Origin: a virus
DNA: 37,455 nucleotides
UHGV virus genome: UHGV-0248180
Strand: one strand, 5' to 3'
Of this stretch, positions 11,953 through 25,942 are shown piece after piece (position 1 is the stretch's first letter; each line of letters opens with the position of its first letter). The notes beneath the pieces were generated by a model. That model was not told the origin of the DNA. It worked only from the letters and a program-made list of their open reading frames with translations, and did no database searches. The translations under genes and the position numbers were made by a program.

Positions 11953-12147
11953 ATGCTGACACGTGAACAGTTTGAAAAAATCATTAAATTAGCACGTGAT
12001 ATTGAAATAGATTCATACCAATTAGCAGTTGAGCATTGTGAAGGATATTCATACGATGGTATAGAAGCAGCTAAAAAGGATTTGGATAAATCTAAAGCTA
12101 AGTTAGTTCAATATCTTGAAATGATTAGGTGGAATAATGAAAACTGA
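11953..12147 (+). CDS. hypothetical small acidic helical protein (64 aa), paralog family (MLTREQFEKIIKL)
   Basis: ORF. Confidence 0.5.
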   Translation: MLTREQFEKIIKLARDIEIDSYQLAVEHCEGYSYDGIEAAKKDLDKSKAKLVQYLEMIRWNNEN

Positions 12148-12310
12148 AAAGCAGATGTTTTTAATGAAGCTAATTGAAGAATATGCTAATGCAGTTTCTG
12201 ACTATGAGTATTCTTCTCGGGAAAGAGGTACAGCTTTCGCAAAGGAAGAAATGAAAATCATGGTTGATGCTCACACAAAGCTTCAAAATTTTATTGAAAA
12301 CAACATTTAA
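12137..12310 (+). CDS. hypothetical small protein (57 aa), paralog family
   Basis: ORF below track cutoff; same GGTGGAATAATGA junction as at 11735. Confidence 0.4.
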   Translation: MKTEKQMFLMKLIEEYANAVSDYEYSSRERGTAFAKEEMKIMVDAHTKLQNFIENNI

Positions 12311-12312
12311 CG

Positions 12313-12342
12313 GTTTACAAGTTGGCAAGGTTATGGTATAGT
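12313..12342 (+). promoter_or_regulatory. T4 early promoter (GTTTAC-N18-TGgTATAGT)
   Basis: GTTTAC 12313-12318; TGg TATAGT 12334-12342. Confidence 0.65.
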
Positions 12343-12370
12343 AATCTTGTCAACTGCCGAGGAGAAGAGA

Positions 12371-12475
12371 ATGAAAGTTTTGCTTGTTGTGTATGTGATG
12401 ATTCAATATAATTACCCAATGTTTACTTATAATTTGGTGAACAACATTATTGATATGGTTCAGAGGAGTATGTAA
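12371..12475 (+). CDS. possible small hydrophobic leader peptide (34 aa)
   Basis: Strong GAGGAG RBS 12361-12366 and ATG 12371 just downstream of promoter; very short. Confidence 0.3.
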   Translation: MKVLLVVYVMIQYNYPMFTYNLVNNIIDMVQRSM

Positions 12476-13020
12476 TGATGGGAGAGGCGAAACGATTAGT
12501 ATTAGAAGTTAGTTCACTTTTTGGTGAATTGGCTATAGAAAAAGTAAATAATATGTATCGTTTGACGCAAGAAGACGATATGCTATATTTTACGCCTAGT
12601 GAAATCATTCATTTAACCCAAATTGAAAATCCTTATACTGATAAAATTGTAAGCATTAATGATGAGCATAAAATTCATTTTTATTCTTCATGCCCAGGAT
12701 TTAATATTGAAAGCGAGTCAATATGCTTATCAGTTATCCATTGGGATAGTTTTATAGATAAGATTAAATATTTTTATTATTCTAATGAAAGAAAACACAG
12801 TTTAAAATGGTTTAAAAATTGCAATGCTATTATTACTAACGCTTGCAATCAGAATGATGAAACTGTTTTAAATGTATCAAAATGTTATGAAGATGGAGAT
12901 GTCTTAACTATTCGTCAAATTGATGATTTTCGATCGCATATTGTCACATTTACCAAAGACGAAGCTATTGCGCTAAAGACTTATCTTGATTCTGTCATTC
13001 CAACTATGATTTCAAAGTGA
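12475..13020 (+). CDS. hypothetical protein (181 aa), paralog of 13027 ORF
   Basis: ORF with GGAG RBS; C-terminal (A/E)AxALKTYLDSVIPTM resembles EAMIKYLTTVTPSM of the next gene. Confidence 0.6.
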   Translation: MMGEAKRLVLEVSSLFGELAIEKVNNMYRLTQEDDMLYFTPSEIIHLTQIENPYTDKIVSINDEHKIHFYSSCPGFNIESESICLSVIHWDSFIDKIKYFYYSNERKHSLKWFKNCNAIITNACNQNDETVLNVSKCYEDGDVLTIRQIDDFRSHIVTFTKDEAIALKTYLDSVIPTMISK

Positions 13021-13026
13021 GGAAAT

Positions 13027-13548
13027 ATGTATATTTCAAGTGAAAGTGGTTTAATTCGTGTTGAATTTAAAAATGATATTTTCCTTATTCAAGGAGATGA
13101 TATTATTAAAATGAGTTATGACGAAATCAAGAAAATTTGTCATACTCTTGAAAGCCGTGGAAACGTAAATGCTGTTATTGATATTGGTGATTTATGGGTA
13201 ACGCTTTATAAAGTATCCGAAGGATTTAACATTGAAGATGAAAATAACATTTTAGCTATTGATAAAAGAACTGATTTGTTTGATGTATTAAAAGCCTATG
13301 AACAGTCAAACGGTGGAAGAAAAGCTGCATTGATTTATCAAAAACCGCATTCATGTGGAACTGCTTCAATCATTTCAAATATTGAAGACGAATCTGATAC
13401 TTATATGTGTGTTTTAAAAGCTGGTGGTGACCGTCATCCGGATTTTATTTCTATTCGTCAAAACAATGGAGAAATTTCATTATCAAAATCAGAAGCTGAA
13501 GCCATGATTAAGTATTTAACAACCGTTACGCCTTCAATGAAAGGATAA
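13027..13548 (+). CDS. hypothetical protein (173 aa), paralog of 12475 ORF
   Basis: ORF; shared C-terminal motif. Confidence 0.6.
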   Translation: MYISSESGLIRVEFKNDIFLIQGDDIIKMSYDEIKKICHTLESRGNVNAVIDIGDLWVTLYKVSEGFNIEDENNILAIDKRTDLFDVLKAYEQSNGGRKAALIYQKPHSCGTASIISNIEDESDTYMCVLKAGGDRHPDFISIRQNNGEISLSKSEAEAMIKYLTTVTPSMKG

Positions 13549-13550
13549 TT

Positions 13551-13997
13551 ATGATTATTAATGAAAACTCTTGGCACGTTCGTATGCATGATTTCTTTTA
13601 CTGGCAGCGTCCGAATTCTTTGTGTAAATATTTCTGGAAAATGGCGTGGACGTTCTTAGTTATCGGTGTTATTTGCATATCGGGGCTATTAGGTAGTTGG
13701 GTGGTAGGACAAGCCATTTTAAGCCAATTTGGCGTTACAGGATTCTGGCTTCTACACGCAGGCGGAACCTTATTTGGTGTACTGATATTTGCTACGATTG
13801 TCATTATTGCAGTAGGTATAGCATATATTATAGCTAAGATTTCAGGTTTATGGGAAGGAGTCAGGTATGATAGAGAGTGGAAGCGTCAACAAGACGAAGA
13901 AAATGGTATTGAACATCCTAAGAGTGTAATCGTTGAATACCTTAAAGCTAGTAAATCTAAAATCTGCCCTATGATAGAATTTAAGGATGTTAAATGA
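13551..13997 (+). CDS. hypothetical integral membrane protein (148 aa)
   Basis: ORF; long hydrophobic segments (WTFLVIGVICISGLLGSWVV... GTLFGVLIFATIVIIAVGIAYII). Confidence 0.6.
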   Translation: MIINENSWHVRMHDFFYWQRPNSLCKYFWKMAWTFLVIGVICISGLLGSWVVGQAILSQFGVTGFWLLHAGGTLFGVLIFATIVIIAVGIAYIIAKISGLWEGVRYDREWKRQQDEENGIEHPKSVIVEYLKASKSKICPMIEFKDVK

Positions 13998-17080: not shown

Positions 17081-17106
17081 CCGCTTTATACCAAGGATGG
17101 TATAAT
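17077..17106 (+). promoter_or_regulatory. Candidate extended -10 promoter (TGgTATAAT) lacking a good -35
   Basis: TGg TATAAT at 17098-17106. Confidence 0.3.
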
Positions 17107-17135: not shown

Positions 17136-17543
17136 ATGAAACAGTTGATAATTAAAAGATTGAATTTATTGATATGTTGTTTATGTGTAGTAATTGCATA
17201 TGGTTATTACGCAATTAATGATTATATGCATTATAAAGATTATGATGTTACTGTAGTTAATACCATTACAGGAACACAAGGAAAAGGGTCTAGTTTATTG
17301 TTTATTGCCGTATATGAACTCAAAGATGGTTATAGATTTAGTGAATATATTTCCCCAGAGATGTATTCTTCAATAGAAAAAGGTGATAATATTACTGTAA
17401 GTTTACGTCCTTTCGACGTAAAACAGACATTGTTTGATAATATTGTTTGGTTCTTTGGAATGGTATTAGTTCAATCTGTGTGTGGTGCTTATATAGTCTG
17501 TTCCATCTTATTCTGTATATTTAGTAAAATTGAAATTGAGTGA
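17136..17543 (+). CDS. hypothetical membrane protein (135 aa), N- and C-terminal TM segments
   Basis: ORF; hydrophobic termini. Confidence 0.55.
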   Translation: MKQLIIKRLNLLICCLCVVIAYGYYAINDYMHYKDYDVTVVNTITGTQGKGSSLLFIAVYELKDGYRFSEYISPEMYSSIEKGDNITVSLRPFDVKQTLFDNIVWFFGMVLVQSVCGAYIVCSILFCIFSKIEIE

Positions 17544-17550
17544 GGAAAAT

Positions 17551-18441
17551 ATGTCAGTAGTAATTAATAATGTCAATGCAGTAATTAAATCTTTAGTTAA
17601 TAAAAAAATGATGAATGAATGGACTGTATTTCGCAGTGCAGAGCCAGATAAATTTTTTCATAGATTTAACTCAACTTTGGATTTGAATGTTATTGACAGA
17701 GATGTTCATGCAGAAATTTTAGATAAGTTTAAAGTTGATATTGGATTTGGATTAGAAAAACATTTGCAGCGAACAAACGGATCTGGAATGAGTTTATCTA
17801 ATCGCATTATGAAAGCCCTTAATAAAATTGGAGCATTGTCTCGTATTAATGCGAGTGAAATCCTTCGTAATTATAATAAAGGATATGACCTTTATGGTCG
17901 ACTAATGCCAAAATTATCATTCGATCAAATGATTGCGGATTTGTGGGAAAATCAAAGACGATTATTAGCATTAGGCGCTCGATTAGCTAAAGGTCTAGAT
18001 AAACAAATGATTTTTAAGACCAATAATACAGAAGACCTTAAATGCTTTAAATTTAGTATTCGTGGCGATGATTATTACATCAGAGCTCGCTCTACAGATT
18101 ATGTTAATATGGGGCATCATCTCTGTTTAGCTTTTGAAGTTTTAAAAGAAGCTGGAACATTAGAATATTCATCTGGTGCAAAATGCCCTATTGGTTCAAG
18201 TTGTATTTTAATTTATCGCCCGGATGAATCCAGTTCAACTAAATTGCCTACGAAACCTGTACCAGTTCGTAGTAACGAAAAACACTCTGAACAAATTGAT
18301 TATTTTAATAAACAGATTGAAGAGCTGAATATTTCTATTCAACAATATGATGATGAAATTTTCAGACTATCTGGACTGAGTAGTAAAGCTAAATCTGAGC
18401 GTGAAAAGTTAATTAAAATTGTCGATTTACTTAAATCTTAA
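17551..18441 (+). CDS. hypothetical protein (296 aa), member 1 of a 4-gene paralog array, C-terminal coiled coil
   Basis: ORF with GAGGAAA RBS; shared architecture with following three genes. Confidence 0.6.
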   Translation: MSVVINNVNAVIKSLVNKKMMNEWTVFRSAEPDKFFHRFNSTLDLNVIDRDVHAEILDKFKVDIGFGLEKHLQRTNGSGMSLSNRIMKALNKIGALSRINASEILRNYNKGYDLYGRLMPKLSFDQMIADLWENQRRLLALGARLAKGLDKQMIFKTNNTEDLKCFKFSIRGDDYYIRARSTDYVNMGHHLCLAFEVLKEAGTLEYSSGAKCPIGSSCILIYRPDESSSTKLPTKPVPVRSNEKHSEQIDYFNKQIEELNISIQQYDDEIFRLSGLSSKAKSEREKLIKIVDLLKS

Positions 18442-18449
18442 GGAACACC

Positions 18450-19469
18450 ATGAAAACTCGTTCTCAAATTGAAGATATGGTTCGTAATGCCAGCTATACT
18501 CGTGATGTTATGACATTTTTGTGCCAAAATAATTTAGACCCTGATAAAGTTAATCGTGATATTCACTTTAAATATATGAATAGCAGTGAATGGTTACGTC
18601 ATTTTAGTAAAGCGGGGTATATTACACAAATGACGGCTCGTGAGCAGCTCACCGATTTCTGTAAAACTATTGATTATAAAAATCCTCTATTTGTTCAAGG
18701 CGTTGGTCAGAGTAAGGTTGATTTATCATCTGGATTTTTTAATCCAAATCATTATCGTATTGAGTGGAGATTTATTGCTCTATTCCGTAAACAATTAAAG
18801 CAAATTTTGTCGACGGCTAGTCGATTAAAAGGTTCTGATATTAACTTAAAGAATCTGAAATTTGATGGTTATACTCTTCAGATGGAAGTAAGACCATTAA
18901 AAGAAAATAACAGAACTGCACGAATTAGCTTTAAACCTAATACAAAAAATTCTCTTTCAATTTGTGAATGCCTTAAATCACAGTTGACAGAAGCATTTAA
19001 GTATATGGATGTAGTTGCCGCGGTTCAGTCTAAGATTTTACCTCATTTTGAGCGAAATTGGGAACATACAGCAACGTATGAACTTGATATGATCGTTTCA
19101 TTTAAATACGATTTTTTGAGAAAGGACGAAGTCCCGCAAGAGAAAAAGCAGGAAGTGCAAGATATCTTAAATTTATCCAATTACTCATCAAACGATCCTA
19201 AATTTTGGATGTATAGTTCAGGTAATAAAGATACATGGAAATTCAATAAAGTGAATTTTCTTCCTGTTGAAAATCCGAGTCTTAAACCTGTTGAAAAATG
19301 GCACGCGGATGCGATTGAGAAGTCTATCAAGGCAGTAGATGATGAACTCGTTAAAGCAACTAATGAAGTGTTAGAAGCTGAAAAGATGCTAGAAAAAGCT
19401 CAAGAAAAAGTCAAAAATCTTACGAAGCAACGTTCTAAACTGAACAACGCACTAAATGCACTAAACTAG
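18450..19469 (+). CDS. hypothetical protein (339 aa), paralog array member 2
   Basis: ORF with AGGA RBS; central motif WRFIALFRKQLKQILSTASRL; coiled-coil tail. Confidence 0.6.
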   Translation: MKTRSQIEDMVRNASYTRDVMTFLCQNNLDPDKVNRDIHFKYMNSSEWLRHFSKAGYITQMTAREQLTDFCKTIDYKNPLFVQGVGQSKVDLSSGFFNPNHYRIEWRFIALFRKQLKQILSTASRLKGSDINLKNLKFDGYTLQMEVRPLKENNRTARISFKPNTKNSLSICECLKSQLTEAFKYMDVVAAVQSKILPHFERNWEHTATYELDMIVSFKYDFLRKDEVPQEKKQEVQDILNLSNYSSNDPKFWMYSSGNKDTWKFNKVNFLPVENPSLKPVEKWHADAIEKSIKAVDDELVKATNEVLEAEKMLEKAQEKVKNLTKQRSKLNNALNALN

Positions 19470-19498
19470 TTTACTTTGCCACAAGGATGTGGTATAAT
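19469..19498 (+). promoter_or_regulatory. T4 early promoter (GTTTAC-N18-TGgTATAAT)
   Basis: GTTTAC 19469-19474; TGg TATAAT 19490-19498. Confidence 0.65.
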
Positions 19499-19526
19499 GT
19501 TCTTACTTTCTACTGAGGAGATTAAT

Positions 19527-20528
19527 ATGACTCGTAACGAATATATCAAATCATTCAATAGCGTTATTGATGATAAAGTTAAACCTGTGTTTAGTCAGAA
19601 TAGTGTTATTTCCATTATCAATCAATGGCTCAATAATATTGATGCAAGTATTGTTTCTTCAAGCAAATTTATTCATGAAGTTCATAAAATTTCTAGTCGC
19701 GAATATAAAGATGATATTAAGGAAACTTTTAAAGGTTCTCGTCTTCTTTCATATTTAGTTAATCAAGATATTCTTGGTAAATTTGGGAAAGAAATTAAAC
19801 GAACTAAAGATGTAGTAGGATACAGTTGGTTCGGTGATGTTAATTCTTATCATCTTAATAATAAAGAAGACCCTGAGAATATTTTTACTCGTCGTTGGAT
19901 TAGTAATTTTAGACTTTTCAAGAAGCAAATTCTAAAATCAGCTTCTAAATTATGCTATGGTGATTATCGTCAAATCCATCCTTGGGCTTCTGATATGATT
20001 ATCATAAAAGAATATGAGCTTGATAAAAATAAAGCAGCTATTTTTGTGAATTATGAATTTTTTACACCAGAAGCTAATCAAAAGAACATTAATAAATTTT
20101 TCTCAATTGCTAGCGATATAACTCGTCAGTTAGAGACCGCATTACTTTGTATGGAAACAGTAGAAAATATTTATACTTATCCTTTTAAGAATATATGCGG
20201 TTGGGAAGGATATAAAATTGTAGTTAGTCTCCGTGAAGTAAAGTGTGCGTACTCACCGACTGATAAAGAAATTTACCAACAAAAATGTGATGAAATTGTG
20301 AATACTCCTAAAGAAGAAACTACCCTTGAGGAACTAATGGAATGTCTTGACGATTCGCCTGAACCAGTAGAAATTCGTCCAGAAGTTATTGCACTAGAAA
20401 AAGCTTATAAAGAAGTTCTAGAAATTTCTAATAAAGCGCAGAAAGAATATGAGCAGGCTAAAAGGATTTGGGAAGAATCTGTTAATCGCCTGGATCGTCT
20501 TGAACAAGCTTTACAGTTAATTAAGTAA
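19527..20528 (+). CDS. hypothetical protein (333 aa), paralog array member 3
   Basis: ORF with GAGGAG RBS; central motif RRWISNFRLFKKQILKSASKL; coiled-coil tail. Confidence 0.6.
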   Translation: MTRNEYIKSFNSVIDDKVKPVFSQNSVISIINQWLNNIDASIVSSSKFIHEVHKISSREYKDDIKETFKGSRLLSYLVNQDILGKFGKEIKRTKDVVGYSWFGDVNSYHLNNKEDPENIFTRRWISNFRLFKKQILKSASKLCYGDYRQIHPWASDMIIIKEYELDKNKAAIFVNYEFFTPEANQKNINKFFSIASDITRQLETALLCMETVENIYTYPFKNICGWEGYKIVVSLREVKCAYSPTDKEIYQQKCDEIVNTPKEETTLEELMECLDDSPEPVEIRPEVIALEKAYKEVLEISNKAQKEYEQAKRIWEESVNRLDRLEQALQLIK

Positions 20529-20580
20529 TTTAAAGCCAAGGATGGCTCGGAGTATAAACCATTAACCAAGTGAGAAGAAT

Positions 20581-21510
20581 ATGAAAACTCGTAAACATTA
20601 TATTGATTATTTTGACAGTCTTATTACTAAACACCGTAATTATCAGATCGGGCACAGAGCAGTAATCAATAATATTCTTCGTGATTTCCTTCAATATGTT
20701 GGTCAGGAAAATCATATCTGTAAAGATACTCAAAACGCTTATTCTCATTCGTTAGGCAATTTGCTTGAATGGTTTAAACGTTCTCGTATGTTATCTTCTA
20801 CTGTAGCTCATGAGAACATTAAAAACTTTATGAAGCCGAGTTTCATTAAATCTGAGACATCTATAACCGATTTGGTTGAATTTACTATTGTTAATGATGT
20901 TAAAAAGACTCATTTGGCTGATTGGTTTTCTACCATTCCTGAAACTAAATTTGCTGATAAATTTGCTTGTCAATTCAATGACCAAGTGAATATGCTTTTT
21001 AAGCATGCTCGCAAACTATTTACCGCGGGCGATGACCGTACAAATACAGTTCATGTTAAGGACTGGGTTATTGCTGATGAAGTAACACACAAGCCAGGTG
21101 GTTCATCAGTATTAATTAATATCCAGGTTCCTTATTATTACTCACGTAATCTTGGCACCATGACAGCTAAAGAAATTAATAAGCACAACAAAACTATTCG
21201 TTCGTTGTCTTATAAACTCCGCATGATGTTAAAAATTATGGACGTAGTGGAAATGTATGACGAAACCGAAGATAATGGTTCAATGCTGTACAGTTCACGC
21301 ATTCTAATTAAACTGAAGAACCCTAATACATATAAGACAGTTGTAAAAGAGCCTAAAGTAGAAAAGGTTGATAATCTGAGTGAAGAACGTGAATATCTCA
21401 ATGCCCGTTTGATTGAAGTTGAAGCCCAAATTGCAGAACACACCAAATTGTTAAAAGCTCTTAATGCAAAAGCAAATGGTTTACGTAATGCTATTGAGGT
21501 ATTGAAATGA
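20581..21510 (+). CDS. hypothetical protein (309 aa), paralog array member 4
   Basis: ORF; N-terminus MKTRKHYIDYF resembles member 2 MKTRSQIEDMV; coiled-coil tail. Confidence 0.6.
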   Translation: MKTRKHYIDYFDSLITKHRNYQIGHRAVINNILRDFLQYVGQENHICKDTQNAYSHSLGNLLEWFKRSRMLSSTVAHENIKNFMKPSFIKSETSITDLVEFTIVNDVKKTHLADWFSTIPETKFADKFACQFNDQVNMLFKHARKLFTAGDDRTNTVHVKDWVIADEVTHKPGGSSVLINIQVPYYYSRNLGTMTAKEINKHNKTIRSLSYKLRMMLKIMDVVEMYDETEDNGSMLYSSRILIKLKNPNTYKTVVKEPKVEKVDNLSEEREYLNARLIEVEAQIAEHTKLLKALNAKANGLRNAIEVLK

Positions 21511-22142: not shown

Positions 22143-22406
22143 ATGTTTAAAGTATATGGTTATGATAGCAACATTCATAAATGCGTGTATTGCGATAATG
22201 CAAAACGTCTTTTGACTGTGAAGAAACAGCCGTTTGAATTTATCAACATTATGCCGGAAAAAGGTGTTTTTGATGATGAGAAAATCGCTGAGCTTCTGAC
22301 TAAACTAGGTCGTGATACTCAAATCGGCTTGACAATGCCTCAGGTATTTGCTCCTGATGGAAGTCATATTGGTGGATTTGACCAACTGCGAGAATATTTT
22401 AAATGA
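22143..22406 (+). CDS. nrdC: Glutaredoxin/thioredoxin NrdC (87 aa)
   Basis: CVYC active site; matches T4 NrdC from memory. Confidence 0.92.
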   Translation: MFKVYGYDSNIHKCVYCDNAKRLLTVKKQPFEFINIMPEKGVFDDEKIAELLTKLGRDTQIGLTMPQVFAPDGSHIGGFDQLREYFK

Positions 22407-22618
22407 TGCTCGAAGGAACTGACTATATTCATGATTACCGCAGAAGCGCGGTATATGTAGGTGATGAAGTTGCAGTTTATTATGGGTATGGAACTTTGAT
22501 GACAGCAAAGGTTATTCAAATTAAAAATAATCGTGCTAAACTTGAAGTTTATTATTCTAACGGTGAAAAGTCTATTTCTAAATGGAAATATGGTGATTGT
22601 ATGGTCAAACTGGGGTAA
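22403..22618 (+). CDS. hypothetical protein (71 aa)
   Basis: ORF, ATGA overlap. Confidence 0.5.
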   Translation: MMLEGTDYIHDYRRSAVYVGDEVAVYYGYGTLMTAKVIQIKNNRAKLEVYYSNGEKSISKWKYGDCMVKLG

Positions 22619-22620
22619 AT

Positions 22621-22791
22621 ATGATTTACGATATTAGCGTATCAAGAACTCCGTCAATGGTTACTATTCCTGCTGAAGAACTAAATCGTCTTCAGAAAAT
22701 TGAAGAGCTTCTTTGGGAAATTGAATCTGATTTGCCATCAGGACTAGAATCCTGGATTGATTATGAAGAACTTAATAAGCTTCGGGGTTAA
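22621..22791 (+). CDS. hypothetical protein (56 aa)
   Basis: ORF; track start 22597 is TTG, first ATG is 22621. Confidence 0.45.
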   Translation: MIYDISVSRTPSMVTIPAEELNRLQKIEELLWEIESDLPSGLESWIDYEELNKLRG

Positions 22792-24128: not shown

Positions 24129-25942
24129 CAATTGAAAAAGAAATTGAAGGATTGATTCATAAAACTAATAAAGACCTTTTAAACGAGAATGCTAATAAAG
24201 ATTCTCGTGTTTTTCCAACTCAACGGGACCTTATGGCTGGTATTGTGTCTAAACACATTGCCAAAAATATGGTCCCGTCTTTTATTATGAAAGCGCATGA
24301 AAGCGGAATTATTCATTTCCATGATATTGATTATTCCCCTGCTCTTCCATTTACTAATTGTTGTTTAGTAGATTTAAAAGGAATGCTTGAAAACGGATTT
24401 AAGCTTGGTAATGCACAGATTGAAACTCCTAAATCAATTGGCGTTGCTACTGCAATTATGGCGCAAATTACTGCGCAAGTTGCTTCCCATCAATACGGCG
24501 GAACGACTTTTGCGAATGTAGATAAAGTACTTTCTCCTTATGTTAAACGCACCTATGCAAAACATATTGAGGATGCAGAAAAATGGCAAATCGCTGATGC
24601 GTTGAATTATGCTCAATCTAAAACAGAAAAAGACGTATACGATGCATTTCAAGCTTATGAATATGAAGTAAACACTCTCTTTAGTTCAAACGGACAAACG
24701 CCTTTTGTAACAATTACATTTGGTACGGGAACTGACTGGACTGAACGAATGATTCAGAAAGCAATTCTGAAAAATCGTATTAAAGGTCTTGGTCGTGATG
24801 GGATAACTCCTATTTTCCCTAAGCTTGTTATGTTCGTTGAAGAAGGCGTTAATCTTTATAAAGACGATCCGAATTACGACATTAAGCAACTTGCTCTAGA
24901 GTGTGCAAGCAAAAGGATGTATCCTGATATTATTTCAGCTAAGAACAATAAAGCTATCACTGGTTCATCTGTTCCTGTTTCTCCAATGGGTTGCCGTAGT
25001 TTCTTGAGCGTATGGAAAGATTCGACTGGTAATGAAATTCTTGATGGACGTAATAATCTTGGTGTTGTAACACTGAATCTTCCTCGCATCGCGTTAGATT
25101 CTTATATTGGAACACAGTTCAATGAACAGAAATTTGCTGAATTATTCAATGAACGAATGGATTTATGTTTTGAAGCTTTGATGTGTAGAATTAGTTCCTT
25201 AAAAGGAGTTAAAGCTACTGTTGCTCCTATTCTTTACCAAGAAGGTGCATTCGGGGTTCGTCTTAAACCTGATGACGACATAATTGAGTTATTTAAAAAC
25301 GGTAGAAGTTCAGTGTCTTTAGGATACATTGGTATTCACGAATTGAATATTCTTGTCGGTCGTGATATTGGACGAGAAATTTTAACTAAAATGAATGCTC
25401 ATCTTAAACAGTGGACTGAAAGAACTGGATTTGCTTTTAGCTTGTATTCTACTCCCGCTGAAAACCTTTGTTATCGCTTCTGTAAACTTGATACTGAAAA
25501 ATATGGAAGTGTAAAAGATGTTACTGATAAAGGCTGGTACACTAATAGTTTCCATGTTTCAGTAGAAGAAAATATTACTCCGTTTGAAAAGATTTCTCGC
25601 GAAGCCCCATATCATTTCATTGCGACAGGTGGTCACATTTCTTATGTTGAACTTCCTGATATGAAAAATAACTTAAAAGGTCTTGAGGCCGTGTGGGATT
25701 ATGCTGCACAGCATTTAGATTATTTTGGTGTTAATATGCCAGTAGATAAGTGTTTTACATGCGGAAGTACCCATGAAATGACTCCTACTGAAAACGGATT
25801 TGTTTGTTCTATTTGTGGAGAAACTGATCCTAAAAAGATGAACACAATAAGAAGAACATGTGGTTATTTGGGAAATCCGAACGAGCGCGGATTTAATCTT
25901 GGCAAAAATAAAGAAATCATGCATAGGGTTAAACACCAATGA
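24125..25942 (+). CDS. nrdD: Anaerobic ribonucleoside-triphosphate reductase NrdD (class III), 605 aa, uninterrupted
   Basis: C-terminal glycyl-radical motif RRTCGYLG and zinc ribbon CFTCGS..CSICG. Confidence 0.95.
   Translation: MTIEKEIEGLIHKTNKDLLNENANKDSRVFPTQRDLMAGIVSKHIAKNMVPSFIMKAHESGIIHFHDIDYSPALPFTNCCLVDLKGMLENGFKLGNAQIETPKSIGVATAIMAQITAQVASHQYGGTTFANVDKVLSPYVKRTYAKHIEDAEKWQIADALNYAQSKTEKDVYDAFQAYEYEVNTLFSSNGQTPFVTITFGTGTDWTERMIQKAILKNRIKGLGRDGITPIFPKLVMFVEEGVNLYKDDPNYDIKQLALECASKRMYPDIISAKNNKAITGSSVPVSPMGCRSFLSVWKDSTGNEILDGRNNLGVVTLNLPRIALDSYIGTQFNEQKFAELFNERMDLCFEALMCRISSLKGVKATVAPILYQEGAFGVRLKPDDDIIELFKNGRSSVSLGYIGIHELNILVGRDIGREILTKMNAHLKQWTERTGFAFSLYSTPAENLCYRFCKLDTEKYGSVKDVTDKGWYTNSFHVSVEENITPFEKISREAPYHFIATGGHISYVELPDMKNNLKGLEAVWDYAAQHLDYFGVNMPVDKCFTCGSTHEMTPTENGFVCSICGETDPKKMNTIRRTCGYLGNPNERGFNLGKNKEIMHRVKHQ

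Follow-up and report, generated by a model that had tools for sequence, protein, structure and literature searches.

Bacteriophage T4 is the best-studied lytic phage, and most of its accessory early genes are still without an assigned function. The present analysis concerns four consecutive genes (positions 17551-21510) of UHGV virus genome UHGV-0248180, a stretch of 37 455 nucleotides referred to in full as the window. The four genes correspond to nrdC.6, nrdC.5, nrdC.4 and nrdC.3 of T4, and our comparisons place them in a single narrow superfamily. The closest described relative is T4 NrdC.5, which counters Dsr1, a SIR2-domain defence protein thought to act by depletion of nicotinamide adenine dinucleotide (NAD+). 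A T4 clone with compensatory deletions could not infect strain ECOR17, and deletion of dsr1 from this strain restored infection (Srikant, Guegler and Laub, eLife 2022, PMC9391042). Plasmid-borne dsr1 shielded MG1655 from the same T4 clone, and T4 nrdC.5 supplied in trans restored plating (PMC9391042). The Dsr1 sensor has been reported, for E. coli Dsr1 and Drexlerviridae phages, to recognise the phage major capsid protein (PMC13581612). According to the supplement to the HIDEN-SEQ transposon-mapping preprint (bioRxiv 10.1101/2025.11.20.689424), nrdC.3, nrdC.4, nrdC.5 and nrdC.6 are all non-essential in T4. Our literature search brought up neither a paper that deals with how NrdC.5 works nor one that assigns a role to nrdC.3, nrdC.4 or nrdC.6.

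Two further sets of proteins bear comparison with the array. DSAD1 of Bacillus phage SPbeta resembles NrdC.5 in being a non-enzymatic phage protein that counters an NAD+-depleting defence with a SIR2 domain; it is described as suppressing the defence protein DSR2 itself, and we borrow this as a mechanistic model for NrdC.5. It differs in that its target is DSR2 and not Dsr1 and that its host belongs to another clade, and the abstracts of the DSAD1 papers mention no tandem array of paralogues. T6 gp49.2 inhibits OLD (PMC13096335), and T4 NrdC.1 inhibits Septu (bioRxiv 10.1101/2025.11.20.689424). Both are like the array in having an anti-defence role and in belonging to the early non-essential accessory region, where in T4 their genes follow the array within about 1-2 kb, but they are small proteins unrelated to those of the array.

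The 5.5 kb around the array are 99.7% identical to Escherichia phage BW-1, which identifies the window as a Tequatrovirus. The same region is matched by 743 phage records, whose hosts are almost all Escherichia, Shigella, Yersinia and Salmonella, and those relatives that were studied more closely are T4-like, most of them belonging to the subfamily Tevenvirinae. The + strand of the window is the strand of early transcription and corresponds to the minus strand of the T4 reference. All four open reading frames (ORFs) lie on this strand, each with a good Shine-Dalgarno sequence, and both position and similarity identify them as orthologues of the T4 genes; the order nrdC.7-nrdC.6-nrdC.5-nrdC.4-nrdC.3-nrdC.2-nrdC.1-nrdC is common to the window and T4. 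Member 1, the nrdC.6 orthologue (17551-18441, 296 amino acids), belongs to PHROG 2257 (expectation value, E, 7e-152) and carries the precomputed Pfam annotation PF26899, which is present on all nrdC.6 homologues; it is the most diverged paralogue of the four. Member 2, the nrdC.5 orthologue (18450-19469, 339 amino acids), falls in Pfam DUF7235/PF23882 and PHROG 2351. Over residues 1-339 it matches the DUF7235 hidden Markov model (HMM) at E 2.3e-125, scoring 418.5 bits where the gathering threshold is 30; it is 92-93% identical in amino acids to T4 NrdC.5 and keeps its position between nrdC.6 and nrdC.4. The published rescue from Dsr1 applies to the T4 allele only. Member 3, the nrdC.4 orthologue (19527-20528, 333 amino acids), is 91% identical to T4 NrdC.4 and belongs to PHROG 1435 (E 2e-165). 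Member 4 (20581-21510, 309 amino acids; PHROG 1435, precomputed Pfam PF26897) is an nrdC.3 allele with 61% identity to T4 NrdC.3 and 75% to the Mosigvirus copy. These coordinates and lengths agree exactly with those of the initial annotation. The databases hold the T4 counterparts of members 1, 3 and 4 as separate families without a function, PHROGs merging only nrdC.4 and nrdC.3 (phrog_1435) and keeping nrdC.5 and nrdC.6 in two families of their own; here all are joined to NrdC.5.

Pairwise sequence comparison detects little of this relationship. In an all-against-all BLASTP only nrdC.4 and nrdC.3 matched significantly (25% identity over 229 residues, E 2e-5); nrdC.5 and nrdC.4 aligned in a 24-residue basic motif alone (50% identity, E 0.045), and BLASTP of nrdC.6 against the other three members gave no match. 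A word-indexed protein search with nrdC.5 as the query returned relatives almost all of which were more than 80% identical, and the same type of search with a merged alignment returned the nrdC.5 and nrdC.3 families but not the nrdC.4 family. Profiles were compared with hhalign; the orthologues for them were taken from T4 and, in three other genera, from six further phages. With small alignments nrdC.4 and nrdC.3 were linked at 97.7% and nrdC.5 and nrdC.4 at 78% (E 1.7e-5), and nrdC.6 remained unlinked in these alignments from eight phages (E 0.03-0.3). With larger profiles the nrdC.4-nrdC.3 match reached 97.9% (E 3e-13), and with merged profiles nrdC.6 matched nrdC.4 plus nrdC.3 at 85% (E 6e-6).

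Linking nrdC.6 required, in addition to merged profiles, remote members recovered by an exhaustive HMMER search in which a combined nrdC.5/nrdC.4/nrdC.3 profile was run against 1.84 billion cluster representatives. At E <= 1e-3 this search recovered only 27 proteins, among which six are full-length but remote relatives with 315-349 amino acids. A profile built from these six proteins alone matched nrdC.5 at 98.8% (E 4.5e-17), nrdC.3 at 97.4% (E 1.4e-11), nrdC.4 at 96.8% (E 3.1e-10) and nrdC.6 at 95.4% (E 1.7e-8), and the alignments were collinear over 270-286 columns in all four families. The hhalign matches that tie nrdC.6 to the other three ranged from 95.4 to 96.7% (E 1.7e-8 to 3.9e-10). 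Reversed profiles, which retain composition and coiled-coil character, served as controls and gave E values of 0.06-0.66. Two profiles, those of nrdC.6 (94%, E 1e-7) and of nrdC.5 (92%, E 7e-7), are matched by CIP9_194, the single-copy protein of a Kanagawavirus, and an HMM made without any nrdC.6 sequence picks just the four array ORFs, nrdC.6 included, from among all ORFs of the window. Moreover, the AlphaFold2 models of nrdC.6 and nrdC.5 both match BFVD entries A0A2S1GM98 (Erwinia phage Cronus) and A0A2Z4QAR2 (Klebsiella phage Mineola), which are uncharacterised proteins of distant T4-like phages. Because the full-length profile matches stand against reversed controls that did not match, because CIP9_194 bridges two families and because the nrdC.6-free HMM recovers nrdC.6, we regard the common ancestry of all four genes as established at the level that sequence analysis allows, and the genes as copies of a single accessory early gene of T4-like phages that arose by ancient tandem duplication. 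The diverged tandem paralogy proposed in the initial annotation thus holds for all four members by profile-profile comparison and for members 3 and 4 by plain BLASTP. The genes themselves, and the function of one of them, were already known; what is modestly new is their unification, by which the anti-Dsr1 protein NrdC.5 joins three neighbours without an assigned function in one narrow superfamily that has a defined domain plan and a history of expansion, fusion and allele replacement that can be traced.

The four proteins share one plan. The N-terminus is helical and poorly conserved, and it is followed by a conserved basic helix, a core of beta-beta-alpha-beta-beta topology, a linker that is disordered and a C-terminal helix patterned in heptads. 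Structure models were made for two members, nrdC.6 (predicted local distance difference test score, pLDDT, 77) and nrdC.5 (pLDDT 64), and in both AlphaFold2 placed the elements in the same order: N-terminal helices, the basic-motif helix, a helix flanked on either side by a beta hairpin, a linker of low confidence and a long C-terminal helix. The superfamily alignment contains an N-terminal block M-x-T-R-x-E-Y that is missing from nrdC.6, a helix block resembling LSRxNAxxILxNF, the basic helix block F..N...hL....R-L..G..R (of which the nrdC.6 version is NQRRLLALGARLAKGLDKQ), a helix l..AL..M..V, a P...P-h-E turn that precedes the tail, and at the extreme C-terminus a block QR-x-K-L-x-x-A-h-x-x-L-K (with variants QR/NR, K/R and A/I) found in all four. 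The conserved columns are mostly hydrophobic, together with two arginines.

The central basic motif noted in the initial annotation aligns in all four members. In member 1 it spans approximately residues 127-150 (IADLWENQRRLLALGARLAKGLDK, 17929-18000), aligns to the other families and is the most conserved block within the nrdC.6 family. In member 2 it coincides with a predicted helix at residues 104-127 (IEWRFIALFRKQLKQILSTASRLK, 18759-18830), and in members 3 and 4 the alignments locate it at residues 122-142 (RRWISNFRLFKKQILKSASKL, 19890-19952) and 124-146 (FADKFACQFNDQVNMLFKHARKL, 20950-21018), respectively. The tails, described there as heptad repeats, are also borne out: the amphipathic heptad pattern of the last 42 residues exceeds that of composition shuffles in every member (p = 0.02, <0.0005, 0.004 and 0.004 for members 1-4), and long C-terminal helices are predicted in both models. 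Member 1 ends in a helical hairpin (residues 243-295, with helices at 243-272 and 278-295; 18277-18435) that terminates in EREKLIKIVDLLKS, and member 2 in a single long helix (residues 283-338, pLDDT 81-91; 19296-19463) that terminates in QRSKLNNALNALN. The heptad test, supplemented by alignments for member 3, places the tails of members 3 and 4 at approximately residues 284-333 (20376-20525, terminating in NRLDRLEQALQLIK) and 262-309 (21364-21507). The tail of member 4 is the most conserved block of its family, with a mean pairwise identity of 0.95.

Some observations on individual sequences concern this plan. The T4 reference (NC_000866, positions 12067-12894 of the fetched locus) lists an nrdC.6 of 275 amino acids in which the C-terminus is frameshifted and the coiled-coil tail is missing. 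The full 296 residues are found in every other phage examined, and the resequenced T4 of the HIDEN-SEQ preprint has a gene of 891 bp; the truncation is probably an error of the reference sequence or a mutation of the laboratory strain. In Foldseek, the beta-beta-alpha-beta-beta core of the nrdC.5 model (approximately residues 140-220, at about 18870-19110) has numerous weak matches among the tail-completion, tail-terminator and connector proteins of phages, with E from 3e-3 to 6e-2 and probabilities of up to 0.9, from a model of modest confidence. A 378-residue protein of Sf25 was considered as a new architecture and turned out to be an internal duplication. The 173-residue protein P0092 ends in an exact copy of the final 53 residues of NrdC.5, preceded by an unrelated N-terminus of 120 residues for which the phage collection contained no match. 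Its source is an ENA contig of 803 bp; the protein may reflect either module shuffling or a chimeric assembly, and we do not rely on it as evidence of shuffling.

No sign of enzymatic activity was detected. Domain searches against Pfam and NCBIfam gave only matches to domains of unknown function or matches below threshold, profile searches against all PDB chains gave no sequence homologue and no solved structure for NrdC.5, and the superfamily alignment contains no conserved set of residues of catalytic type, in agreement with the earlier remark that no enzymatic motif was recognised. Nor did the Pfam and NCBIfam searches give, above threshold, the NAD+ salvage or synthesis domains of the NAD+ reconstitution enzymes NARP1, NARP2 and NARP3. 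Among the PDB profile matches there was no chain of DSAD1 or of a DSR complex at E <= 10, on the assumption that the PDB copy searched contains the DSR2-DSAD1 complexes. A reading of the proteins as DNA mimics was rejected because three of the four are basic.

The family is confined to T4-like phages, namely the Straboviridae and the genus Marfavirus, whose record gives no family. Copy numbers were taken as HMM counts of family members in the fetched loci. Klebsiella phage Marfa (Marfavirus) and Enterobacter phage CIP9 (Kanagawavirus) each have one member, at the syntenic site between nrdC.11 and nrdC; the 257-residue genes beside these single copies were rejected as additional members (E 0.05-0.19). 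Three members are present in ATK48 (Mosigvirus; nrdC.6, nrdC.5-like and nrdC.3-like), in JS98 and MX01 (Dhakavirus) and in UPEC01, VR26 and RZ (Gaprivervirus), the last two genera carrying nrdC.6, an nrdC.5-like gene and nrdC.4. T4 and the window, both Tequatrovirus, have four. The array is unstable even within this genus, where natural fusions and deletions leave two or three copies. In Salmonella phage Manna (3215-4252 of the fetched locus) nrdC.6 and nrdC.4 are fused in frame (nrdC.6::nrdC.4) at a QQxxDEI microhomology common to both, with the anti-Dsr1 gene nrdC.5 deleted, and in phage Pinarejo (3938-4153 of its locus) nrdC.6 is reduced to a frameshifted remnant. The metagenomic protein P0056 is an in-frame nrdC.5::nrdC.3 fusion.

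Divergence within the array is uneven. The nrdC.3 genes of the window and T4 are 69% identical in DNA, compared with 93-97.5% for the neighbouring genes. Across phages the nrdC.3 alleles form two classes, with identities of at least 90% and of 60-80%, and that of the window differs from the T4 class; it is a deeply diverged replacement allele, with a synonymous divergence (dS) of approximately 1.0. Pairwise ratios of nonsynonymous to synonymous divergence (dN/dS) against T4 are 0.15 for nrdC.5, 0.17 for nrdC.4 and 0.30 for nrdC.3, compared with 0.03-0.07 for nrdC.8 to nrdC.11. The ratio for nrdC.6 is 0.05, and this protein is 95-97% identical across hundreds of Tequatroviruses. The flux in copy number, the fusions, the allele replacement, the raised dN/dS and the narrowness of the family are read together as evolution in the style of an arms race.

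Our preferred interpretation, to which we assign a probability of roughly 60%, is that the four proteins are a battery of non-enzymatic, stoichiometric inhibitors of host immune proteins. They would bind host immune sensors or effectors and block them, with the variable body setting the specificity for the target, the basic helix packing on the beta-beta-alpha-beta-beta core and the conserved C-terminal helix serving either for oligomerisation or as a docking contact common to all. The rise from one copy to three or four in the coliphage lineages would then widen the range of defences, or of defence alleles, that one phage can disarm. Since they are one family with the anti-Dsr1 gene nrdC.5, nrdC.3, nrdC.4 and nrdC.6 are good candidates for further immune-evasion genes, and members 1, 3 and 4 may be inhibitors of further, yet-to-be-found targets, a role suggested by homology, genomic position and evolutionary behaviour. 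The initial annotation had pointed to host-interaction or counter-defence factors, and this finds support in the published anti-Dsr1 activity of T4 nrdC.5, in the anti-OLD and anti-Septu neighbours and in the non-essentiality of the genes. Its accompanying description of the function as unknown is outdated for member 2.

A number of points weigh against this interpretation. The functional evidence is limited to NrdC.5 and is genetic in kind, namely rescue in trans. Direct binding of NrdC.5 to Dsr1 is a proposal modelled on DSAD1, and the nrdC.5 allele of the window is a putative anti-Dsr1 gene by orthology to that of T4. The suggested role of the tail in oligomerisation follows from its heptad pattern, and the quality of the nrdC.5 model is modest. 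With a pI of approximately 9.2, three of the four proteins are basic, so that binding to nucleic acid is possible. Finally, the low dN/dS of nrdC.6 indicates strong purifying selection, for which a conserved target in the cell is no worse an explanation than an arms race.

Several other explanations have to be set beside it. One of these is that the genes are not homologous at all, and that unrelated sequences have a coiled-coil composition and a chance basic motif in common. Most BLASTP pairs are indeed non-significant and Pfam and PHROGs keep three separate families, but composition does not account for full-length collinear profile matches with E values down to 4.5e-17 when the reversed controls stay at 0.06 or above. 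Bridging single-copy sequences match several families, the order of secondary structure is equal in the nrdC.6 and nrdC.5 models, and the members lie at one locus in all genera; on these comparisons convergence instead of homology is essentially excluded. Given homology, function might still have diverged, so that only NrdC.5 acts in counter-defence and the other three have accessory roles in host takeover that are dispensable in laboratory hosts, such as binding of host or phage nucleic acid or modulation of host metabolism. The basic character and conserved basic helix of three of the proteins would fit such roles, as would the strong conservation of nrdC.6, and the accessible part of the HIDEN-SEQ data gave no conditional phenotype for nrdC.3, nrdC.4 or nrdC.6. 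Against this, the three match a proven anti-defence protein in architecture over their full length and in the C-terminal tip, share their island with further genes that counter defence and belong to an array whose fluctuating copy number, fusions and allele replacement are usual for accessory genes in an arms race. We therefore treat such a division of roles as a tentative alternative that is somewhat unlikely.

The remaining two explanations concern the way in which the proteins act. NrdC.5 might not bind Dsr1 and might instead work indirectly, by masking or sequestering the phage trigger, reportedly the major capsid protein, or by otherwise preventing activation. Such a mode would accord with the reported recognition of the major capsid protein by the Dsr1 sensor (PMC13581612), and the Foldseek matches of the nrdC.5 core hint at a fold like that of virion proteins; these matches are weak, though, and come from a model with a pLDDT of 64, and the sole precedent known to us, DSAD1, is described as suppressing DSR2 itself. 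We consider indirect action quite unlikely. The four proteins might also form one hetero-oligomeric complex through their similar C-terminal helices, as could be argued from the presence of the tip in all paralogues, where it is the best-conserved block within each family, and from the natural chimeras, which keep the tail in frame. A fixed stoichiometric set does not seem to be required, however, since related phages carry one, two or three members and natural isolates have lost members individually, and the reference nrdC.6 of T4 has no tail. An assembly of this type appears decidedly doubtful, and stoichiometric inhibition by each protein of its own immune target is the interpretation that we retain.

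An internal early promoter between members 2 and 3, which had been proposed at 19469, is present. It occupies 19469-19498 on the + strand, in the 57-bp gap upstream of nrdC.4, and has the form of a sigma-70 or T4 early-type promoter, GTTTAC-N18-TGgTATAAT, with 10 of 12 consensus matches and a TG extension; its spacer holds a small hairpin, CCACAAGGATGTGG. Promoter-like sites are about as frequent in the region as in shuffled sequence (32 found, 28.7 expected), and the consensus match alone is thus at the level of chance. Tequatro-, Gapriver-, Dhaka- and Mosigvirus all have the same element upstream of the third gene of their arrays, and this conservation in four genera argues that the promoter is functional. 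The array is probably transcribed early, and the conserved internal promoter would keep the distal genes expressed. A degenerate copy of the spacer (CCAAGGATGG ... TATAAA) precedes nrdC.3. Upstream of nrdC.7 (17091-17100), nrdC.4 (19481-19494, in the hairpin form) and nrdC.3 (20536-20545), and also near 414 (414-423), promoter-like sites have the short motif CCAAGGATGG in their spacers. There are five matches where 1.0 is expected, and the motif is kept in the equivalent promoter of the four genera.

The surroundings of the array depart from those in T4 in several respects. The window is without the homing-endonuclease genes mobD and mobC, without the nrdD intron with I-TevII and without genes 49.3 and 49.2; nrdC.1 is retained. 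The differences are located at 13046-13992 and 22407-22790 and at junctions near 24660 and 25940, and small ORFs at 13027-13997 and 22403-22791 stand in place of missing T4 genes. The glutaredoxin gene nrdC lies downstream of the array at 22143-22406. Upstream lies nrdC.7 (17136-17543), which encodes a predicted membrane protein; at an amino-acid identity of 91%, its pairwise dN/dS relative to T4 is 0.41, higher than that of any other gene in the region.

A more far-reaching proposal, which we regard as speculative and rather unlikely, is that the proteins form a polyvalent 'anti-sensor battery', in which the constant tail docks on a shared feature, for instance an oligomeric SIR2-type effector or a common host hub, and the divergent bodies each jam a different sensor, for example capsid sensors of the Dsr1 or Avs7 type. 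Were this true, the expansion from one to four copies in coliphages would track the diversity of this sensor family in Enterobacteria, three anti-defence proteins would await discovery in nrdC.3, nrdC.4 and nrdC.6, and immune inhibitors would gain a new structural class in the family. At its present strength the result extends a known anti-defence island and overturns no current ideas; it is useful, and will be unsurprising to the specialist. The domain map, in which the body varies and the C-terminal helix stays constant, may help in dissecting how NrdC.5 blocks a sirtuin-based immune protein. The array also offers a clean example of accessory-gene expansion from one to three to four copies, with recombination between paralogues and swapping of alleles, and membership in one family with NrdC.5 makes its three neighbours concrete, testable candidates for counter-defence.

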